Below, piece by piece: positions 3,661 through 21,699 of a DNA stretch of 64,000 nucleotides. Numbering within the stretch: the stretch's first letter is position 1; each line of letters begins with the position of its first letter. The DNA is taken from NCBI GenBank assembly GCA_964016885.1, contig OZ024744.1, forward strand, positions 39,494,001 to 39,558,000. The letters run 5' to 3'. The notes under the pieces were generated by a model, which saw only the letters and a program-made list of their open reading frames with translations, was not told where the DNA came from and did no database searches. The position numbers and the translations under genes are program-made. This stretch comes from Eledone cirrhosa. Lineage: Eukaryota.

Positions 3661-3705
<45 letters not shown>

Positions 3706-3856
3706 ATACTTTGGGAGGGTCATGTTGCCAATAAGAAACACACGCACCAGTTGCTTTCACTTCAATTTAATTTATTATATATTTATAAATTTACAAATTT
3801 ATAAATTTCTGGTTGGTTGGTTGGTTCCACAACCAGATAGTTGTTTATATATATAT

Positions 3857-3901
3857 AATCATAGTTCTTTCGTCACACACTCTGTGACCTCTTCAGTGAC
3901 T
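3857..3901 (-). ncRNA. Minimal type-I hammerhead ribozyme (mirror copy)
   Basis: Reverse complement: agtca CTGAAGA g gtcac agagtgt gtgac GAAA gaac TA tgatt. Confidence 0.7.
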
Positions 3902-4016
3902 GGGGATTTCTTTCTTCGTTTCTGTGCCTTTCCTTTCTTCTATCCTACGCCATTTTGTTTCAAAATGGCGTAGGATAGAAGAAAGGAAAGGCACAGAAAC
4001 GAAGAAAGAAATCCCC

Positions 4017-4061
4017 AGTCACTGAAGAGGTCACAGAGTGTGTGACGAAAGAACTATGACT
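4017..4061 (+). ncRNA. Minimal type-I hammerhead ribozyme in Penelope pLTR
   Basis: agtca CTGAAGA g gtcac agagtgt gtgac GAAA gaac TA tgact: 5-bp stem I, 5-bp stem II, very short stem III, CUA site. Confidence 0.75.
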
Positions 4062-4272
4062 ATATATATATAAACAACTATCTGGTTGTGGAACCAACCA
4101 ACCAACCAGAAATTTATAAATTTGTAAATTTATAAATATATAATAAATTAAATTGAAGTGAAAGCAACTGGTGCGTGTGTTTCTTATTGGCAACATGACC
4201 CTCCCAAAGTATAACAATATCGGTTTCAACACACGATTTCAGATAAAGAATCTTGCTAAACAAATTCAGAAA

Positions 4273-4319
<47 letters not shown>

Positions 4320-5223: not shown

Positions 5224-6018
5224 GGCATACGTCGAGACGGGCGGTCTCAAAAGTGAAACTAATTTTTGACAGTTACGATTGTGAATTTGTTTGTTTTTTT
5301 ACAACAGGTCTCAATAGTGAAAGTATAATGCAGACACACGCAATTGTATAGATTTCTTAATATATATATATGTGTGGGTGTGTATATGTGTGTGTGTATG
5401 TATATATATATATGTCTGTTTTTATATATATATGTGTTTGTGTCATCATCATCGTTTAACATTCAAGGTGGCATTTACCTCCATGATGTTGTTGTGCACC
5501 AACGGAACTTTGTAGATCCTGAAGACCCTAATGTGCACACACAACTCATAGAGAACACTTGGAGCCGTGCAAAGAAAAAGATTCGTCGCCAGCATGGGAC
5601 AAGCGATTCTTTATTCCCCTCATATTTAGCTGAATTTCTTTGGCGGCAGAGAGTTGGTGCCAACAAGTTTGGCGAGATGATCAACTGTATTTCAGCTATT
5701 TATAGGGTGTAATAAGGATTTTCATAAGGTACGTCAATTTATATTTTATATGCAACAAACGTATAACTATGTAGTTATTTAAAAAAATTTTATTTCTTTC
5801 AACACACAATGTCATTATTTTTTAAAAAAATTTTCCGTACACACAATACACAAAAAAAGAAAAAAAAAAAAAATCACGTACACGCAATACTAATTAACAC
5901 CATATCACTATTGAGACCTGTTGTAAAAAAACAAACAAATTCACAATCCAAATTGAAAGTAATCACTTACGTAACTGTCAAAAATTAGTTTCACTTTTGA
6001 GACCGCCCGTCTTGACGT

Positions 6019-6049: not shown

Positions 6050-6129
6050 GGGGGGGGGGGGGGGGGGTATAAATGTAATCTGAGTTTTTGAATATTAATA
6101 ATAATATTTGATTCGTTTGCAATCATGCA

Positions 6130-6335
6130 AACAAGCCTCTTTTAAGCTATGTCAGTAGAATGAGCTCCTCATTCTTGCTCTTGTGTTGGCATGTAAACAG
6201 AACTGGAGACACTAATGTTTCTGGGTATCACCCTTCATCGGTACAGCTCACTGTTCACCTGCCAATTGTCAGAGTTAGTGAAAATATATATTTTCTAAAA
6301 TATACAGTGACTGATCGGCCTCATTTGCATATTAG
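6130..6335 (-). mobile_element. Retrozyme-like octamer-TATA-hammerhead unit, copy C (degenerate core)
   Basis: Minus strand: ATGCAAAT (6330-6323), tatata from 6290, then gagctgta CCGATGA a gggt gat accc a GAAA cattagtg TC tccagttc (6249-6200). Confidence 0.6.
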
Positions 6336-6428
6336 CAGACTGGATGATCAGTCAAATCTGCATATTAGCAGATCCACTGATCAGCCAGATTTGCATATCA
6401 GCAGACTGGCCAGTCAGTTTGTGAAGTT

Positions 6429-6910
6429 TATGGCGATGATGTTGTAGGTGAATCAACTGTTCGAAAGTGGTTTGCAAAATTTAAAGCTGGAGAGTTTAGC
6501 TTGGGAGATGATAGTCGCAAAAATTGGATGAAGATGTATTGAAGGCAAAAATGGAAAAAATCTCAAATATTACGACTGGAGAACTTGCAGAGGAATTGGA
6601 AGTTTCTAAAAGTACGGCTCATGAACACCTAATGAAACTAGGATACATTTCTCGCTATAATGTATGGGTCCCTCACAAACTCTCAGAAAATAATTTCTTG
6701 GTCCGGTATTCTGTTTGTGATACGCTTTTGAAACGGAATGAAAGTATGCCTTTTTTAAAACAACATATGACTGGAGATGAAAAATGGATTGTGTACGAAA
6801 ACGTAGTGCGAAAGAAATCCTGGAGTTTGCGTAAGGATCTCCCAAAACAGCAACCAAAGACGAATATTCATACCAAAAAAGTTATGCTTTGTGTTTGGTG
6901 GGATCATAAA
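6429..6910 (+). pseudogene. Mariner-family transposase fragment
   Basis: YGDDVVGESTVRKWFAKFKAG then, after a frameshift, WVPHKL, MTGDEKWIVYEN, KKVMLCVWWD. Confidence 0.9.
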
Positions 6911-7381
6911 TACATTATATCGAGTGCTTTATTCCTCTTTCTATCTCTCCATCTCAGAATCGACCATATAAAGAAAGGAACATTCAACTCGTGTCGCTAC
7001 TAGTCCTTCTACCACGACATTGTGTTGATACGAAAAGAGTTGTTTTTTTTCTTTTCAAATGAAGTGTACTCGGGACTAAATTAGACAATGTATCTTTCCT
7101 TTTTCTTAAATCGATATGGTTTGGGGAGGAATCATTGCTATTCTAAATAGATTAAAGAGTTGCACAGAATATACCGTGTTGATTCTTGAAAGTAGCAATG
7201 ATGTTGTTAATGGTGATGGGAAAAGTATGAGATGATGACAGGGCGGCAGCGATGGTGATGGTGGTGGTAGTGCTGTTTTTGTTGGCGGCAGCGATGGTGG
7301 TGGTGGTGATAAGAGTTGTTTAATCCAGTGTTAGCGCTGATCCACAAACCTGTGGTTAAAGTTTTTCCAGTCGAGACCATC

Positions 7382-8082: not shown

Positions 8083-8649
8083 TGTCGTCGCCGTCGCCGC
8101 CGCCTCATGCCATCCCCTATTGAGCAGACCTGTGATCAAAGTTATTCTGTTCCTTTGTTTCACTTAGATCCTGCCATCGTCATTGTTGATGTAATAGCAA
8201 ACCAGTGGTTATTAGTATATTTCAAGTTTTGATATTCACATTGTATATCTCTTCGTGTGTCCAGTCTAATATCACAAATGTTGGTACAAGTAGTGACACT
8301 ACAAGAGCGTTATAAAATACAGTTTTATTGAATACTAGCAGAATGGCCCGGCGTTGCTCGGGATTCTAAACATAGATTGGCATGTTTATCCCTCCTTTCT
8401 GAAACAGTTTCGTCGTATGTTCACCAATTGATGCAGAAGTCCTAATAAAAAGTGAAGTCGCCTTGGGTGAATAGGCAAATAATTTTCCATTAAGATTTTT
8501 CAAAAGCATGTAATTGCGTTCCTTCTCTTTTTTTTTTGTTGTTGTTTTTGCTGCTGTCGAGCCTCGTGAAATAAATACGTTTGTTTATATTTTGTTATTA
8601 TGTATGCAAAAATATCTGTACACGAATATATAATTATATATATATATTA

Positions 8650-14659: not shown

Positions 14660-15645
14660 ATTGTTATTTTATTATATACAATATTGCTAATAGAAAGACA
14701 CACACGCACCATATAATTTCACTTTATCTTTATTGTTTGTTATTCATTTGTTTATCAAAGTTCTTTCGTCACACATTCTGTGACCTCCTCATTTTCTTGG
14801 ATTTAAACTTCTTCTTCATCTTGTTTTTATTTGTTTTGTGGTGTGTTTTGTGTCAGTGCATGCGTTTGCACCTGTATCTCTGTGTGTGTGTTTGTATGTG
14901 TGTTTTATGTGGGGGGAGGGGGGTTGTATCGTTTACTGTTTTGCTGTTTGTGTCTCTATTCTTTCTTCAGTCATTAACTTGTGTGTTGTTACTATTCCAT
15001 TCGTGTTTTCTGTTCAGGCTAGGACTATCTTCTATTATGTGTGTGGCTGCCGTAATTTGTCTGAGTGTTGCATCAGTTCTATTTGTGGATAGGATCTTTA
15101 TTTCTATGTTATCTATTGATCCCTGGTATTCTAGTTTTGTATGTTGGTATAGCACTAATAATCTTTTTTCCTCCTTAAGTTCTCATCACTGTTCCATTAA
15201 TCTCTCTCCCATACTACGGACTGCCTCTCCTATGTATGTTGTTGTCTTGTTTCTACATCGTCCCTCTGTACATTTTATCCTATAGACTACAGTTTTCTTA
15301 TTTTACAGTTTATCTGTAGACTTATGTTATAGATTATACAGTTTCTATCAGTACAGGGCGTTTTCCTAAAAGGGTATGTCCTACTGATCCGGGATTTTAT
15401 GGTAGCTCCTGGTTTTTCTACTACTTTAATGCTATGGTTCATATTTTCTAAAGCTCTTCTAAAACATTATGCTAGTTCGCCTCTAACATCGACAAACATG
15501 ACACTCTGGTATTTTTACCTGTCATACCATGAGTTGGCCTACTTTATCTTTTTCTTAGTCCTTTCTATTGGCAATATTGGCAACATGACCATCGCCAAAT
15601 ATAACAATATCGGTTTCAATACACGATTTCACATCAAGAATCTTA
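14660..15645 (-). mobile_element. Penelope-like element, 5'-truncated with inverted pLTR piece
   Basis: Minus strand YIGEAVRSMGERL (GIY-YIG); homologous to 17700-18600; broken hammerhead at 14761-14787; inverted pLTR end at 15575-15645. Confidence 0.8.
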
Positions 15646-16387: not shown

Positions 16388-16508
16388 GTTATTTTAATAA
16401 ATATTTGCTCTACGGTTCTTATATATCTAATATATATTTATCCTTATCGAGCCCTCTTTGGATTTTAGTCTTCACATTTATTATTATTACTATATATATA
16501 TATATATA

Positions 16509-17110
16509 AGTATGTATGTATACGTACATGCATATATGTATACAGACGTACAGTAGTATGTATATATATACATACATGTACACATATATATACGTATCGG
16601 TTTACCGAACATTTATTAATATTCGGTTTGTTTGTTTGTAAACAAACAAACAGCCCGAATTACGCCGTAAAGTGTTCAAGCAACCAACGTCGCCTTTTTG
16701 TTCAACACTGACACAGGAACGATGTACTAGTTTCAAGCTTATTAGCTATCGTCAGCATCGTATACCTTTCTGCCAGATGATTGAACGTCTGAAAGTATAT
16801 ACTTTCCTTATGCATATTAACGGCTGAGCCCCCCCCCCCCCCAAAGGGGGGGGGGGGGGCGACGATGGTTGCTTGAACACTGTACGGCGTAATTCGGGCT
16901 GCTTGTTTGTTTAAACAAACAAACCGAACATTATAATAAATGTTCGGTAAACCGATACGTACATATATATATGTGTGCATGTGTGTATATATATACATAC
17001 TACTGTACGTCTGTATACATATATGCATGTACGTATAGATACATACTTACATTTAAGTAAGTGCCGTACTAAGAGTGAGAAATGAAATTTCGTTTCATTC
17101 TTTTCCATTT
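16509..17110. mobile_element. Fold-back hammerhead element (same family as 62397-63107 and 31095-31285)
   Basis: 16509-16694 inverted at 16858-17048; spacer holds hammerhead, palindromic TATA and a poly-C/AAA/poly-G hairpin; shared right tail gccgtactaagagtgagaaatgaaatttcg. Confidence 0.8.
16719..16761 (-). ncRNA. Minimal type-I hammerhead ribozyme
   Basis: acgatg CTGACGA t agct aata agct t GAAA ctag TA catcgt; palindromic ACTAGT stem III, GUA site. Confidence 0.75.
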
Positions 17111-17201
17111 ATATATATATATGTGTGTATATATATAGTTAGCTTGAAACTAAATTCCAATTCAATTCTATTATAAGTTGAACCAACTTATACAGCTTCA
17201 T

Positions 17202-17250
17202 ATGCAAATGTGATTAATCCCTCATTTACACAGACGAGAAAACTATATAT
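17202..17250 (+). promoter_or_regulatory. Candidate compact snRNA-type promoter (octamer plus TATA)
   Basis: Octamer-to-TATA spacing 42, 42 and 40 nt in three otherwise diverged copies. Confidence 0.45.
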
Positions 17251-17290
17251 CTCACCTGTTTTCAAGGCCAACAGTTGCAAGACGGAAGGG

Positions 17291-17334
17291 ATCGTCTTGA
17301 TGAGAACCAGTTCAGTTCGAAATGCATCGACGAT
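17291..17334 (+). ncRNA. Minimal type-I hammerhead ribozyme (U3 variant)
   Basis: atcgtc TTGATGA gaac cagttca gttc GAAA tgca TC gacgat; 6-bp stem I, 4-bp stem II, palindromic ATGCAT stem III, AUC site. Confidence 0.75.
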
Positions 17335-17448
17335 TGTCCACCTTGCTTCTGCTGCCATGGTGATAGCTGCCGGTGTCTTTGCATAGCAAGGCTTTGTAAA
17401 TGTTTATTTATAAACATACCGTATTTCTTTCGAAATCGAAATTCCAAT

Positions 17449-17513
<65 letters not shown>

Positions 17514-17518
<5 letters not shown>

Positions 17519-18736
17519 ATACTTTGGGAGGGTCATGTTGCCAATAAGAAACACACGCACCAGTTGCTTTCCCTCCAATTCATTATAAATTAAATTTATA
17601 ATTTTAAGAAATTTGTAAATTTCCGGTATATAATATATACTCTGGCTCCTCTATATACTCCTCTATAAACTGTAGAGGAGCCAGAACCAAATGGGAAAAA
17701 ATGGTAAATAATGATACAAATGGGACCTGTCCCCTGTATAGGAGATCATTTTGGAATAGAATAGAAAGAACTAGGAATAAGGTTAATAGAATAAACTCAT
17801 GGTATGATAACAATAAATACCAGAGTGTAATGTTCATCGATACAACCCCTAGACGTGAACTAGCTTACAAATTTAGAAGGGCCCTAGATAAACTTGATAT
17901 TAAGATAGTAAAAAAACCAGGTACCTCCATAAAAACACTTATTAGTAATACATACCCTTTTCAAAGACCTCCCTGTGTAGATAAGAAATGCATAATCTGT
18001 AAACTAAGCCCCCATATTAACTGTAAAACTAGAAACATAGTATATAGCATAAGATGTACTGAGGGACAGTGTAAAAATAAGAATATAGTGAACATAGGTG
18101 AGACAGCTTGTAGTACAGGAGAACGGTTAAATGAACACTGATGAGAGCTTCAAGATAGAAAAGAATCATCAGTACTCCACCAACATGCTAAAATAGAACA
18201 TAAGCGCAAATTAGAGAACATAGAATTATAAAATAAAATCTACACACAGAAAAGTTGCAATGTTTAGACAAATCACAGAGGCAATAAACATAAATGAACT
18301 CCAACCAAAATTAAATAGAAAACATGAATGGAATAGCAACATCACAACTTACAATTAAGGACAAAATGAAAACACACACACATAGAACAAATAACCAACT
18401 AGTAACATGTAAATAAACAAATAAATAAACAAATAAAAACACACACAGACACCCGGATGTAACACATGCGCAAACTAAGCACACAACACACACACAAACA
18501 AGATGGCGTAGCAGAAGAACAAAGGAGAGGCACAAAACAAAGAAAAGAATCCCCAGTCACTGAAGAGGTCACAGAATGTGTGACGAAAGAACTTTCACAA
18601 TATATGAACAACCGTCTGGTTGTGGAACCAACCAGAAATCTATAAATTAAAAAAAAATTTGTTAATTTATAATAAATCGGAGTGAAAGCAAATGGTGCGT
18701 GTGTTTCTTATTGACAACATGACCCTCCAAAAGTAT

Positions 18737-18741
<5 letters not shown>
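17514..18741 (+). mobile_element. Penelope-like element (GIY-YIG part plus pLTR, inverted 5' pLTR piece)
   Basis: ORF 17701-18141 CKTRNIVYSIRC...IGETACSTGERLNEH; hammerhead remnant 18555-18594; termini ttgttatactttgggaggg and its inverse; (TA)n on both sides. Confidence 0.9.
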
Positions 18742-18829
<88 letters not shown>

Positions 18830-19145
18830 GAGAGGTATAGAGATTGTTTTAGCAAGAAGCTAACGGCATTCTATAACATATATGCAACTATATATATATA
18901 TATATATATATAAATATATATATATATAAAATACGTAGTTAAGAAAGCCACAACAATGCAGAGGGAAATCTCGAGGTAGGAAGTGAATGATAGATAGGAG
19001 AAACAGGAGAAAGTGAAAATTGAGAGAGACAAAGATGAAAACAAAACAAAGGTAGAAGGGTTACCGTAGTGGAGATTTAATCCCAATATTTCGGGCTCAC
19101 GCCCATCAACGGGGGAAAGTTCCAAAAGGGGGGGAACGGGCCAAG

Positions 19146-19199: not shown

Positions 19200-19890
19200 T
19201 TATTTCCCTTTGTTCTGTTTACATTGAGCGTCTTACGTAAAAAATTACGCTGGCTTTCTCAGCGTTTAAAATGACATTAACACAATACACGAACAGTTAT
19301 TATAAGCCAGCAAAATATTGACCTGCAAAATTCATCAGTTCGAACACTAAGTTCCGTTTTGCTTCATTTCCATTTAAAAGCATTTTAAAACAATATTTTT
19401 ACTTGAAAACAAGTCTATTTAAAGACTACGTAAAACAAGCAAATATTTCGTCGTTAGGCGTGCAGACAGACAGTCGTGCAGAGAGGTGATATAGGCGTGC
19501 AGACAGACAGTCGTGCAGAGAGGTGATATAGGCGTGCAGACAGACAGTCGTGCAGAGAGGTGATATAGGCGTACAGACAGACATAACTGATAATTTGGTT
19601 ACGCTAATGTTTTTCTCTGCGTTGCAGTGTTTACATTTTCGATCTTTGTTAATAAATAACCAGTGCAGTTTCTATCCCCAGCATCCTCTTTTGTTATAAC
19701 ATTCGGGTTATCATTATGTTTTCTTAACTTCATAAGGCATATTGTTGGTTGAGGGAATATTAATCAAAAACACCACATGCAAGTCTGCACAGTAGACACT
19801 ACAGTTTTTAAGCCAAAAAAGAAACTTAACATTGTAACTTTAACACAGCTACTGAGCGACCCCGAGCAACGCCGGGCTTTACTGCTAGTA
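19200..19890 (-). mobile_element. Helitron-like element with internal 37-bp tandem repeat
   Basis: End matches the inverse of 8333-8362; aggcgtgcagacagacagtcgtgcagagaggtgatat about 3.5 times at 19456-19582; left boundary uncertain. Confidence 0.45.
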
Positions 19891-19934
19891 TGTTTATATT
19901 AGTGTTTATCATATATTAATTTATATTAACTTGT

Positions 19935-19965
<31 letters not shown>

Positions 19966-19981
19966 TACATATTCATGTATG

Positions 19982-20475
19982 CATATAAGTCAGAAATAGC
20001 TGTCGGTAGTTTCCCCTTGGTTCAACTAAAACTCGCTAGGTGGCACCAGCTTTTAAAATCCTTAGCTAAAGGCTTTTAAAAGGTTATTCGTAAACATATA
20101 TATTATTCTATATACAAAACTTACATACTTATATACATACAACTATGCTAGAGCAACACTTAATTCTATTTCTTGTTCAGGGTGAGAGAGCCTACAGTTC
20201 CATATGCAAATGAGGCTAATCAGTCCTGTACATAAGTGTTAAAATTATATGTTTGTGCCTAAATTGAGTTTCAGCAGAAAGCGAGGTAGAGGGGTGGATT
20301 ACCTTAATGATGATCATATAAGTCAGAATCAGCTGTCAGTAATTTTCCCTTGCTTCTGCTGGAACTCGCTAGGTGACACCCTGCCACCAGCTTTTAAAAT
20401 CCATAGCTAAAGGCTTTCAAATGTTTATTTTTAAACATATCGTATACATATTATTCTATAGTCAAAACTTACATA
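19982..20475 (+). mobile_element. Retrozyme-like unit, copy B, partial tandem with 333-bp period
   Basis: 19982-20127 repeats at 20315-20475; octamer 20204-20211, TATA-like from 20246; decayed hammerhead attacc TTAATGA tgat catataa gtca GAAT cagctg TC agtaat; upstream half copy gtca GAAA tagctg TC ggtag. Confidence 0.65.
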
Positions 20476-20789
20476 TATATATATATATATGTATATAAAG
20501 AATAATAAACACCAGAATCAATATGTTGTCAAACTAACACATGTTTCAACCAACAGAGATTCATCCCAAGGATATGAGTCTATAAAATCAGGAATCTTAG
20601 AATTTTCTTAAGAAGGAAGGTTTTTTTTTATGTAAGGTTCCATTATGATTTTATACTTCAATCATCAGAAATAGATTCAAAATCAGTATCATCAGAGTTT
20701 TATTAACATAGAATATTAGCTTTATATATCAGCTCTGCATGAACCGTACTGCATTGAGCTTTAAACCTTCTGGTTAAGTCTATACCAAA

Positions 20790-20892
20790 TAATAGCAATC
20801 ATTCCTGCATCAAATGGAACAAAACCGTCTAACCCATGCTAACATGGAAGATGGACGTTAAACGGTGATGATGATGATGATGATGATGATGA
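20790..20892 (+). mobile_element. RTE 3' tail fragment
   Basis: aacccatgctaacatggaagatggacgttaaacg followed by (GAT)n. Confidence 0.7.
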
Positions 20893-21699
20893 TATATATA
20901 TATATATATCATGATCATCATCATTATTTAAAGTCTGTTTTCCCAAGCATCCTAGCATGTGAGGAGATTGTTATGTCTTTGACACAGCTCAAAACTTCTC
21001 CCAACCCTATGTTTGGCAGGTTTTCTATGGTTGGATACCCATCCTATCATCAACCACTTTACAGAGTGTACTGAGAGCGTTTATCATGTTCATTACCAAC
21101 ACTAGATGGGTTGTAATACCTTTGACACAACTAGAGAGCCCTCTCAACCCTTTTTTGGCATGGGTTCTACAGCAGTTTGCCTTTTCTATTGCCAACCTCA
21201 TTACAGGGTGTATTAGGTGCATTTTTGTTTTTGGCCCCATCACAAGAGAGGTTGTTGGTTATTGACTCACCTGAAGTGCCCCTCTACTCTAGCTGGGGAA
21301 TGCAAGAAGGATGATATATATGATGCCATAAGTGAAATGGGGTGGGATATGACAGGGTGATGAGTAGAAAGAGAGAGTGATGACTTCTGAGAGCATGGGA
21401 GGTACAGTGATGAAAACAGCTACTAAAGGATTATAACTGATGTTTCAGAATTTTAAAGGGATGTGGTTGGTTCTAGATAGAGTGGGAGTTGATCCTGTAT
21501 ATTGCATTGAAGTAAGGGTTTAAGATGGTTAGCAGTGTACAAAGATAGCGAGGGTAGATACTATGGAGTGATAGTGGAGAAGGGGGCATGAATGGGTGTA
21601 GGGTGTACGGTGTATGGTGATGGTGAGAATAGCTTGAAAGGAGTGATAGTTGAAGAGTGGGGTACATGGAGGGGTCACATCAGGTCTGATTTTATGCTG

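Follow-up and report, generated by a model that had tools for sequence, protein, structure and literature searches.

The locus at 19982-20475 is a 5'-truncated copy of a short non-coding repeat followed head to tail by a complete 348-nt monomer, and it lies between TA-rich runs. Copy 1 has only the second half of a hammerhead motif, and the monomer has a degenerate one. With somewhat better than even confidence we read the repeat as a likely non-LTR retrozyme, placed in a TA microsatellite by a single insertion of about 1.5 units that was driven by a Penelope-like element (PLE), and we predict that it is now dead. It is likely an ordinary fossil of a known element type. As a decayed copy of such a class the locus itself carries little weight. 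It does show how elements of retrozyme type land: the 3' end stays constant and lies in a TA run, the 5' end varies, and one or 1.5 units are inserted; this fits mobilisation by Penelope-like enzymes. The window, by which we mean the whole 64-kb stretch of DNA analysed, is eukaryotic, AT-rich and dense in microsatellites, with many broken transposons and interspersed repeats, including fragments with RT, transposase and PHD matches, and TRF returns 100 rows for it.

Anatomy of the locus and its relatives

The sequence CATATAAGTCAGAA begins at 19982 and again at 20315, and these are its sole two occurrences on both strands of the window. In both copies GAA(A/T) is followed by a palindromic helix III and GTC, with GAAA/TAGCTG in copy 1 and GAAT/CAGCTG in copy 2. 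The two GTC sites, at 20002-20004 and 20335-20337, are 333 nt apart, and the octamer ATGCAAAT (20204) and the TATA-like AAATTATAT (20242) sit between them. The two start points, the shared motif, the spacing of the GUC sites and the octamer/TATA between them had been noted in the first-pass annotation and are borne out here. The fixed 333-bp period that was read from them does not hold: from the 5' end onwards the offset of 333 grows to 341 past an 8-nt gap and to 348 past a 7-nt gap. The alignment of 19982-20139 with 20315-20487 has 173 columns at 78.6% identity (E 2e-38). In the ungapped columns 136 of 158 are identical, with 12 transitions and 10 transversions between copy 1 and copy 2. An exact pair of complex 14-mers appears in 4 of 500 shuffles of 19500-21000, and this together with the alignment excludes a chance repeat. 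Both gaps are bases absent from copy 1 (8 and 7 nt) that are largely present in the relative at 17140. The offset drifts because copy 1 lacks these bases; the whole unit is therefore about 348 nt long, and 333 is the outcome of later deletions. Neither TRF nor a profile search finds a tandem array of the 348-nt unit within the 64-kb window.

A degenerate (TA)n/(TACA) microsatellite at 19905-19981 (TRF rows at 19911-19987, and the sequence itself) borders the 5' side and is likely the insertion target. Copy 1 (19982-20127, plus strand) begins inside hammerhead loop II. Missing from it are CUGANGA and the helix I 5' strand; what remains is GAAA (19993-19996), TAGCTG, the GUC at 20002-20004, GGTAGT (20005-20010) as the 3' strand of helix I, and the 3' arm. 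The 3' arm holds a near-perfect palindrome at 20049-20083, seen as a self-match at 20050-20082 and in folds, and its counterpart in copy 2 (about 20390-20424) is less perfect. Three copy 1-specific changes all perfect this palindrome, as a template-switch event would. A short TA-like stretch at 20124-20140 marks the junction of copy 1 with the full monomer and is either a piece of the template unit or a remnant of the target microsatellite.

The full-length monomer (20128-20475, plus strand, 348 nt, GC 0.36) is collinear with the solo relatives. An 11-nt box ATATGCAAATG at 20202-20212, which holds the octamer and is invariant in all three full members, is followed by the TATA-like box at 20242-20250, 38 nt from the octamer start. 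The 5' arm of an extended helix I occupies 20266-20303; it pairs with 20338-20367 of copy 2 and worse with 20005-20034 of copy 1. The copy 2 hammerhead, a degenerate canonical type I motif, spans 20298-20343 with its GUC at 20335-20337, and the insertion ends 3' in a (TA)n run at 20471-20497. The unit is non-coding, with no stop-to-stop frame of at least 100 aa between 19173 and 20963. The segment 20140-20314 aligns to both relatives with scores that none of 300 shuffles attains, and it has no match to its own flanks. It is the 5' half of the unit, and the locus is therefore a 5'-truncated copy plus a full monomer. Upstream, a 37-bp tandem repeat (3.5 copies) at 19455-19891 adjoins the TA run that holds the locus. 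A GC hairpin followed by CTAGT at 19861-19891 recurs at 8362-8332, and we take the pair (19861-19891, 8332-8362) to resemble a Helitron-type 3' end.

A similarity search of the window finds related sequence near 17190-17480 and 6300-6400. The first relative is a solo copy at 17140-17452 (plus strand, 313 nt, GC 0.39) with a hammerhead at 17291-17334 and TA runs on both sides. The second and more distant one is a solo copy at 6070-6345 (minus strand, 276 nt, GC 0.36) with a hammerhead core at 6241. The 20141-20470 unit scores 114 against 17140-17452 and 66 against 6070-6410, and none of 200 shuffles reaches either score. A profile of the three long members recovers those three, which is a match by construction, and copy 1. 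The only other match below E 0.1 in the window is a repeat of the 6.3-kb member's own octamer stretch; at 6309-6409 this stretch is present three times with a 33-bp period and two perfect octamers. All three full members have the same order of ATATGCAAATG, TATA-like box, hammerhead core, 3' arm and TA run, and their 5' halves share 51/93 to 60/94 columns. The two copies match each other in 106 of 123 columns and the 17140 relative in 62/107 and 79/119. By sequence they are each other's closest relatives and belong to the same subfamily, from which the other two window members differ. The helix I 5' strand of copy 2 also places them together: it pairs with the 3' strand of copy 1 at 6/6 (one G-U) and 5/5 positions, a better fit than with its own 3' strand. 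Both the mutual closeness and this fit speak for a single insertion.

Within the window one of the three loci is a partial tandem and two are solo, and window self-comparison and profile search detect no terminal repeats in the solo members. The 17140 copy starts directly after a TA run, about 30 nt past the end of another repeat family (16858-17112). The 6070-6345 relative is flanked by fragments of Transposase_1 with HTH (6515-7003, plus strand) and DDE_Tnp_IS1595 (5329-5712, plus strand). ARAGORN reports 0 tRNA genes, and no correctly ordered A/B box pair occurs in any of the three members; the tRNA-like head of a tRNA-derived SINE is not found.

Hammerhead motifs and the octamer/TATA module

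The copy 2 motif consists of helix I ATTACC/AGTAAT (5 of 6 pairs), helix II TGAT/GTCA and the palindromic CAGCTG. Its core, TTAATGA...GAAT, carries three changes (U3, A5 and U15.1). The hammerhead of the 17140 relative has one core change (U3) and 6/6 helix I pairs, and that of the 6070-6345 relative has the single change U4C; C at position 4 is tolerated according to PMC4075628. Every full member has a single hammerhead of canonical type I layout, and the numbers of core changes in the three are 3, 1 and 1. U3 occurs with G8 unchanged in both the 17297 and the 20304 motifs. A descriptor scan of the window gives 20 hammerhead candidates. The motifs at 17297 (10.5) and 6241 (7.75) score above the best of six shuffles (4.75 to 7.2), while the copy 2 motif (20304) at 6.0 is within that range. 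Rfam has 0 matches in the window at the gathering score, and at E up to 10 its 19 matches in 19700-20700 include no hammerhead. The probable identity of copy 2 as a hammerhead rests on homology and position with respect to its two better-preserved relatives.

The first-pass annotation had described a minimal hammerhead with a palindromic stem III and two cleavage sites. The palindromic helix III is present in both copies. The shape is not minimal, since helix I of 6 bp, helix II of 4 bp and a short palindromic helix III make a canonical type I motif; in the definitions given in PMC4209133, minimal hammerheads differ from canonical ones by a helix II of 7-8 bp, a bulged 5' base and a helix I of 4-5 bp. 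Nor are there two intact cleavage sites, as copy 1 lacks half of the core and copy 2 has the three core changes. Upstream of copy 1 a 10-nt stretch faintly resembles the missing core, but 8 of 135 background flanks do as well or better, and essentially no pairing is predicted for this flank (-1.6 kcal/mol). According to PMC4075628, a change at C3, G5 or A15.1 costs more than 100-fold in activity, and G5A is the usual inactive control. Cores with U3 are found in nature (PMC7151607), and U3 may be a family variant and not decay. At about 7% decay per copy 0.9 core changes are expected, with P 0.23 for at least two and P 0.057 for at least three, so that the core damage is roughly compatible with copies identical at birth. 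We predict that cleavage is absent at either GUC, alone or as a dimer. In a dimeric fold reasoned from the model in PMC4209133 the copy 1 GUC would need the copy 2 core and the copy 2 GUC would need the missing half of copy 1, and neither cut is expected.

The arms outside the core are predicted to extend helix I. In each of the three members the 5' arm (42 nt) finds its best partner in the 3' arm of its own unit, with duplexes of -36.8, -33.9 and -29.6 kcal/mol and 1/200 shuffles in every case. When arms of different members are paired, the six combinations give 8 to 90 of 200 shuffles that do as well, and two of the six stand at 16/200 or better. The 5' arm of copy 2 against the 3' arm of copy 1 gives -27.2 kcal/mol (4/200 shuffles). 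The folding models thus support that extended helix I pairing is kept while the sequence changes. Folded as circles, the whole units are more stable than 59, 59 and 60 of 60 shuffles. When these folds were rerun, the z values were -1.2, -1.8 and -3.8, the antisense was equal and 6 of 24 background windows had z ≤ -2, so that the apparent whole-unit stability was not upheld by the background and antisense controls.

Among 93 ungapped columns, 42 of them invariant, no invariant stretch is longer than the 11-nt box, and 425 of 100000 permutations reach that length. The distance from the octamer to the TATA-like box is 38, 38 and 36 nt in the 20128-20475 unit and its two relatives, and the hammerhead core lies 100, 95 and 89 nt past the octamer in the three full members. 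A TATA box preceded by an octamer is a familiar arrangement in Pol II promoters, and the promoter of newt satellite 2 has an octamer. An internal promoter of snRNA type is described for newt satellite II in PMC2220036. The box in our unit is a putative internal promoter element. We propose tentatively, as a possibility on the doubtful side, that the RNA unit of this retrozyme family contains a POU/Oct-driven RNA polymerase II promoter of its own, made of the 11-nt box and the TATA-like box at fixed spacing. Three sequences cannot prove the function of the module. If the proposal is true, each tandem or circle would re-seed the promoter and spread Oct sites over the genome, and intact copies elsewhere would be predicted to yield circular RNAs of about 350 nt that depend on Oct and are restricted to certain tissues. 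The family would then provide a counterpart outside amphibians to the internal promoter of newt satellite 2. The conserved module bears on how animal retrozymes come to be transcribed so strongly. A literature search, judged by titles and with most subscription papers outside its coverage, made no octamer evident in retrozymes or hammerhead elements. The idea that the octamer forms one side of an RNA helix whose other side is a downstream TTTGCAT was considered and rejected; that motif occurs in two of three members and is absent in 20128-20475, and no consistent pairing is predicted.

Other hammerheads and repeats are present in the window. A second short repeat family, which is younger (85-91% identical), occupies 16491-17112, 62381-63109 and 31092-31324 and forms inverted pairs, with intact hammerhead cores at 16755 (minus), 62644 (minus) and 62805 (plus). 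At 62381-63109 two hammerheads face away from a shared centre of 17-bp tandem repeats with TATA-like and octamer-like words. This family is a better candidate for a live ribozyme than the 19982-20475 locus. Profile matches of the unit to the 16.8-kb and 62.7-kb family are weak (E 0.2 to 1.8), and local alignment finds no similarity of the unit to the other hammerhead families (142, 147 and 59 of 200 shuffles are as good). A lone hammerhead at 38014-38062 (plus strand, intact core at 38020) lies just after a TA-rich run and is unlike the 19982-20475 family. A MAFFT alignment of seven hammerheads did not keep register and was left out of the analysis. A broken non-LTR retrotransposon with RT and zinc-finger regions and CATA-repeat ends is present twice, at 51894-54908 and 56851-59815 (minus strand, 88% identical). 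Long tandem arrays extend over 28323-29837 (36-bp unit, 42 copies), 45580-49651 (ACC-type, about 4 kb) and 49737-51760 (38-bp unit, 53 copies). An RT-family repeat copy at 35152-36691 has PHD finger matches in frames on both strands, consistent with an inverted or rearranged insertion.

Origin of the two copies

A broken PLE at 17453-18830 has a GIY-YIG region, a CxxxxCxxC linker and inverted terminal arms (17453-17627 against 18631-18803), and PLE-related pieces lie at 3665-4315 and 14739-15569. The CxxxxCxxC linker is tied to Neptune and Nematis PLEs in PMC8557442. Hammerheads of PLE type, with a bulged base before a 6-bp helix II, are at 4022 (plus) and 3896 (minus), and a related one is at 18560. 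Within the remnant 17608-18740 (broken ORF 17608-18400) a 117-aa piece has 462 relatives at E ≤ 0.001. Of 20 relatives scanned among the 150 matches listed, three have GIY-YIG and two RVT_1, all below curated cut-offs, and 15 have none; the relative P0012 has RT and then GIY-YIG. Atlas leads for the fragment carry GIY-YIG on 11% and 27% of members in two clusters. The fragment itself has no Pfam match and no match in a word-indexed protein search. No intact PLE copy is seen in the window, and the nearest remnant ends more than 1 kb upstream of the repeats. Local alignment of the unit with the terminal region of this PLE finds no similarity, with 189 of 200 shuffles scoring as well. Since the PLE piece has no sequence in common with the unit, it shows only the presence of such enzymes. 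Three of four element 3' ends are within 25 nt of a TA run, compared with 8.5% of the window, a figure that is partly circular because the ends were placed partly by TA runs. No target-site duplication was found at the locus; the only shared 10-mer (19932, 20490) is off the element ends.

Our proposed route would start from an active ancestor in which the internal octamer/TATA module fires RNA polymerase II just upstream of the hammerhead. A tandem donor would be transcribed into a multimer, and hammerheads pairing via the palindromic helix III would release monomers of about 350 nt that may then become circles. The PLE enzyme would nick AT-rich DNA. Reverse transcription would begin at the end of the 3' arm, cross one full unit into the next and halt in loop II, where CATATA resembles the target. 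A truncated copy ahead of a full copy is described as the typical PLE arrangement, and Neptune and Naiad PLEs prefer (TA)n (PMC8557442). The first-pass annotation had seen the footprint of rolling reverse transcription of a circular RNA. Part of this stands, as the locus is a head-to-tail partial tandem of hammerhead retrozyme type and reverse transcription of more than one unit is its best single explanation. The circular template does not follow: partial tandems are general to PLEs (PMC8557442), both other window members are solo, and one PLE uses uncleaved RNA in vitro, where hammerhead cleavage is dispensable, unprocessed RNA is the main template and reverse transcription starts internally (PMC11167929). 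A circle and an uncleaved linear multimer both predict the layout and cannot be told apart at this locus, and many collected insertions could test between them. The hammerhead is mid-unit in all three full members, which means that copying of a linear GUC-to-GUC monomer from one end to the other did not produce them.

Alternatively, the subfamily may have inserted here twice. The 5'-truncated copy would then be the older and have entered the TA run, the full copy would have followed at the TA-rich 3' end of the first, the 333-nt spacing would be a by-product, and no copying of more than one unit would be needed. We consider this unlikely but well worth weighing. Changes polarised against the 17140 relative number 10 on copy 1 and 3 on copy 2 (3 further sites are unpolarised), and both gaps are on copy 1 as well, which leans towards an older copy 1; the rate difference is, however, not significant (p 0.09), and the three changes that improve the palindrome may be a single event. 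Also in its favour, the copy 1 arm pairs worse with the shared 5' arm (-27.2 against -36.8), a TA-like stretch lies at the junction, both relatives are solo, unrelated hammerhead elements pile up in TA runs at 16491-17514, and a PLE enzyme is reported to nick AT-rich DNA, its own pLTR included (PMC11167929). Against it, the two copies are mutually closest and the other two window members are of different subfamilies. A tandem duplication at the DNA level, by slippage or unequal exchange between the flanking TA runs, with later deletion of the upstream 5' half between TA-like sequences, seems improbable to us. TA-rich runs are indeed on both flanks, copy 1 starts at CATATA beside one of them, local tandem expansions are common here (the 33-bp triplication at 6309-6409), and local amplification has been invoked for retrozyme tandems (10.64898/2026.07.22.740005). 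Yet two events are needed where 5' truncation during reverse transcription needs one, and partial tandems are described as routine products of PLE insertion (PMC8557442).

Two further readings concern what the copies are and what they still do. That they are leftover pseudo-LTRs of an autonomous PLE with a deleted ORF is hardly credible. PLE pLTRs do carry type I hammerheads and form partial tandems (PMC8557442, PMC4209133), and a small palindromic helix III is known from some PLE hammerheads of Drosophila, rotifers and shrimp. But what separates the copies is the 5' half of a short unit seen in two solo members and not the remnant of an ORF, and the 4-bp helix II lacks the bulged base that is typical of PLE minimal hammerheads and present in the local PLE. 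There is also no ORF with RT and GIY-YIG in or beside the repeats, and helix I has 6 bp plus an outer helix. The unit-length RNA between two cleavage sites that was predicted earlier for this locus does not follow from its present state; no working core is predicted to be available to either GUC, the length of the unit is about 348 nt and not 333, and a 333-nt RNA from here is unlikely. That such an RNA, linear or circular, is still yielded between the GUC sites by a dimeric hammerhead we regard as very improbable. It would close a good helix I between its own ends, helix III is palindromic in both copies, and U3 is common to the 17140 relative and occurs in natural cores (PMC7151607). The sole available core, however, has A5 and U15.1 besides U3, and the copy 2 site is without a partner core. 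The putative promoter is inside the interval and points downstream, with copy 1 reachable by read-through only, and the GUC-to-GUC 333-nt RNA has no special stability, shuffles being as good in 29 of 100 linear and 27 of 100 circular folds. We thus retain the single insertion of about 1.5 units, probably PLE-driven and followed by loss of activity, as the preferred reading.

Comparison with known systems

PLEs and their pLTRs, as described in PMC4209133, PMC8557442 and PMC11167929, share with the locus the order of a truncated and then a full copy, a constant 3' end beyond the hammerhead, and AT-rich or (TA)n targets. They differ in that the unit here has no ORF, carries a canonical and not a minimal hammerhead, and is about 10 times shorter. 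Newt satellite 2, a 330-bp hammerhead repeat (PMC2220036, PMC7229834), is similar in unit length, in its dimer-type hammerhead and in an apparent internal promoter, whereas here a TATA-like box stands at +36 to +38 from the octamer and there is no array.

Non-LTR retrozymes are described as related to PLE pLTRs and often monomeric, with cleavage in one of nine tested dimers (10.64898/2026.07.22.740005). The unit belongs to the size class of the retrozymes of Li, Clavereau and Pollet 2026 (family means of about 313-342 bp in insects, amphibians and coral), where monomers and dimers are found too. Their 'active' retrozyme has two consecutive units with complete hammerheads, whereas 0 of 2 units are complete here, and similarity to the local pLTR was not found for our unit. 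Animal non-LTR retrozymes are described by Cervera and de la Pena 2020 (PMC7229834) as tandem units of 150-450 bp with low GC (below 50%) and type I hammerheads, whose RNA occurs in circular form and whose mobilisation is probably due to PLEs; the units measure 225-245 bp in coral, 350-390 bp in mussel, and 330 and 350 bp in axolotl. Unlike these published units, with which ours was compared by description only, the locus has 1.5 units, no intact ribozyme and solo relatives in the window, and it ends in TA runs without a visible target-site duplication. Like them (PMC7229834), it is built from a non-coding unit of 276-348 nt with GC 0.35-0.39 and one canonical type I hammerhead per unit, arranged head to tail, with a short palindromic helix III suited to dimer cleavage and with PLEs in the same genome.
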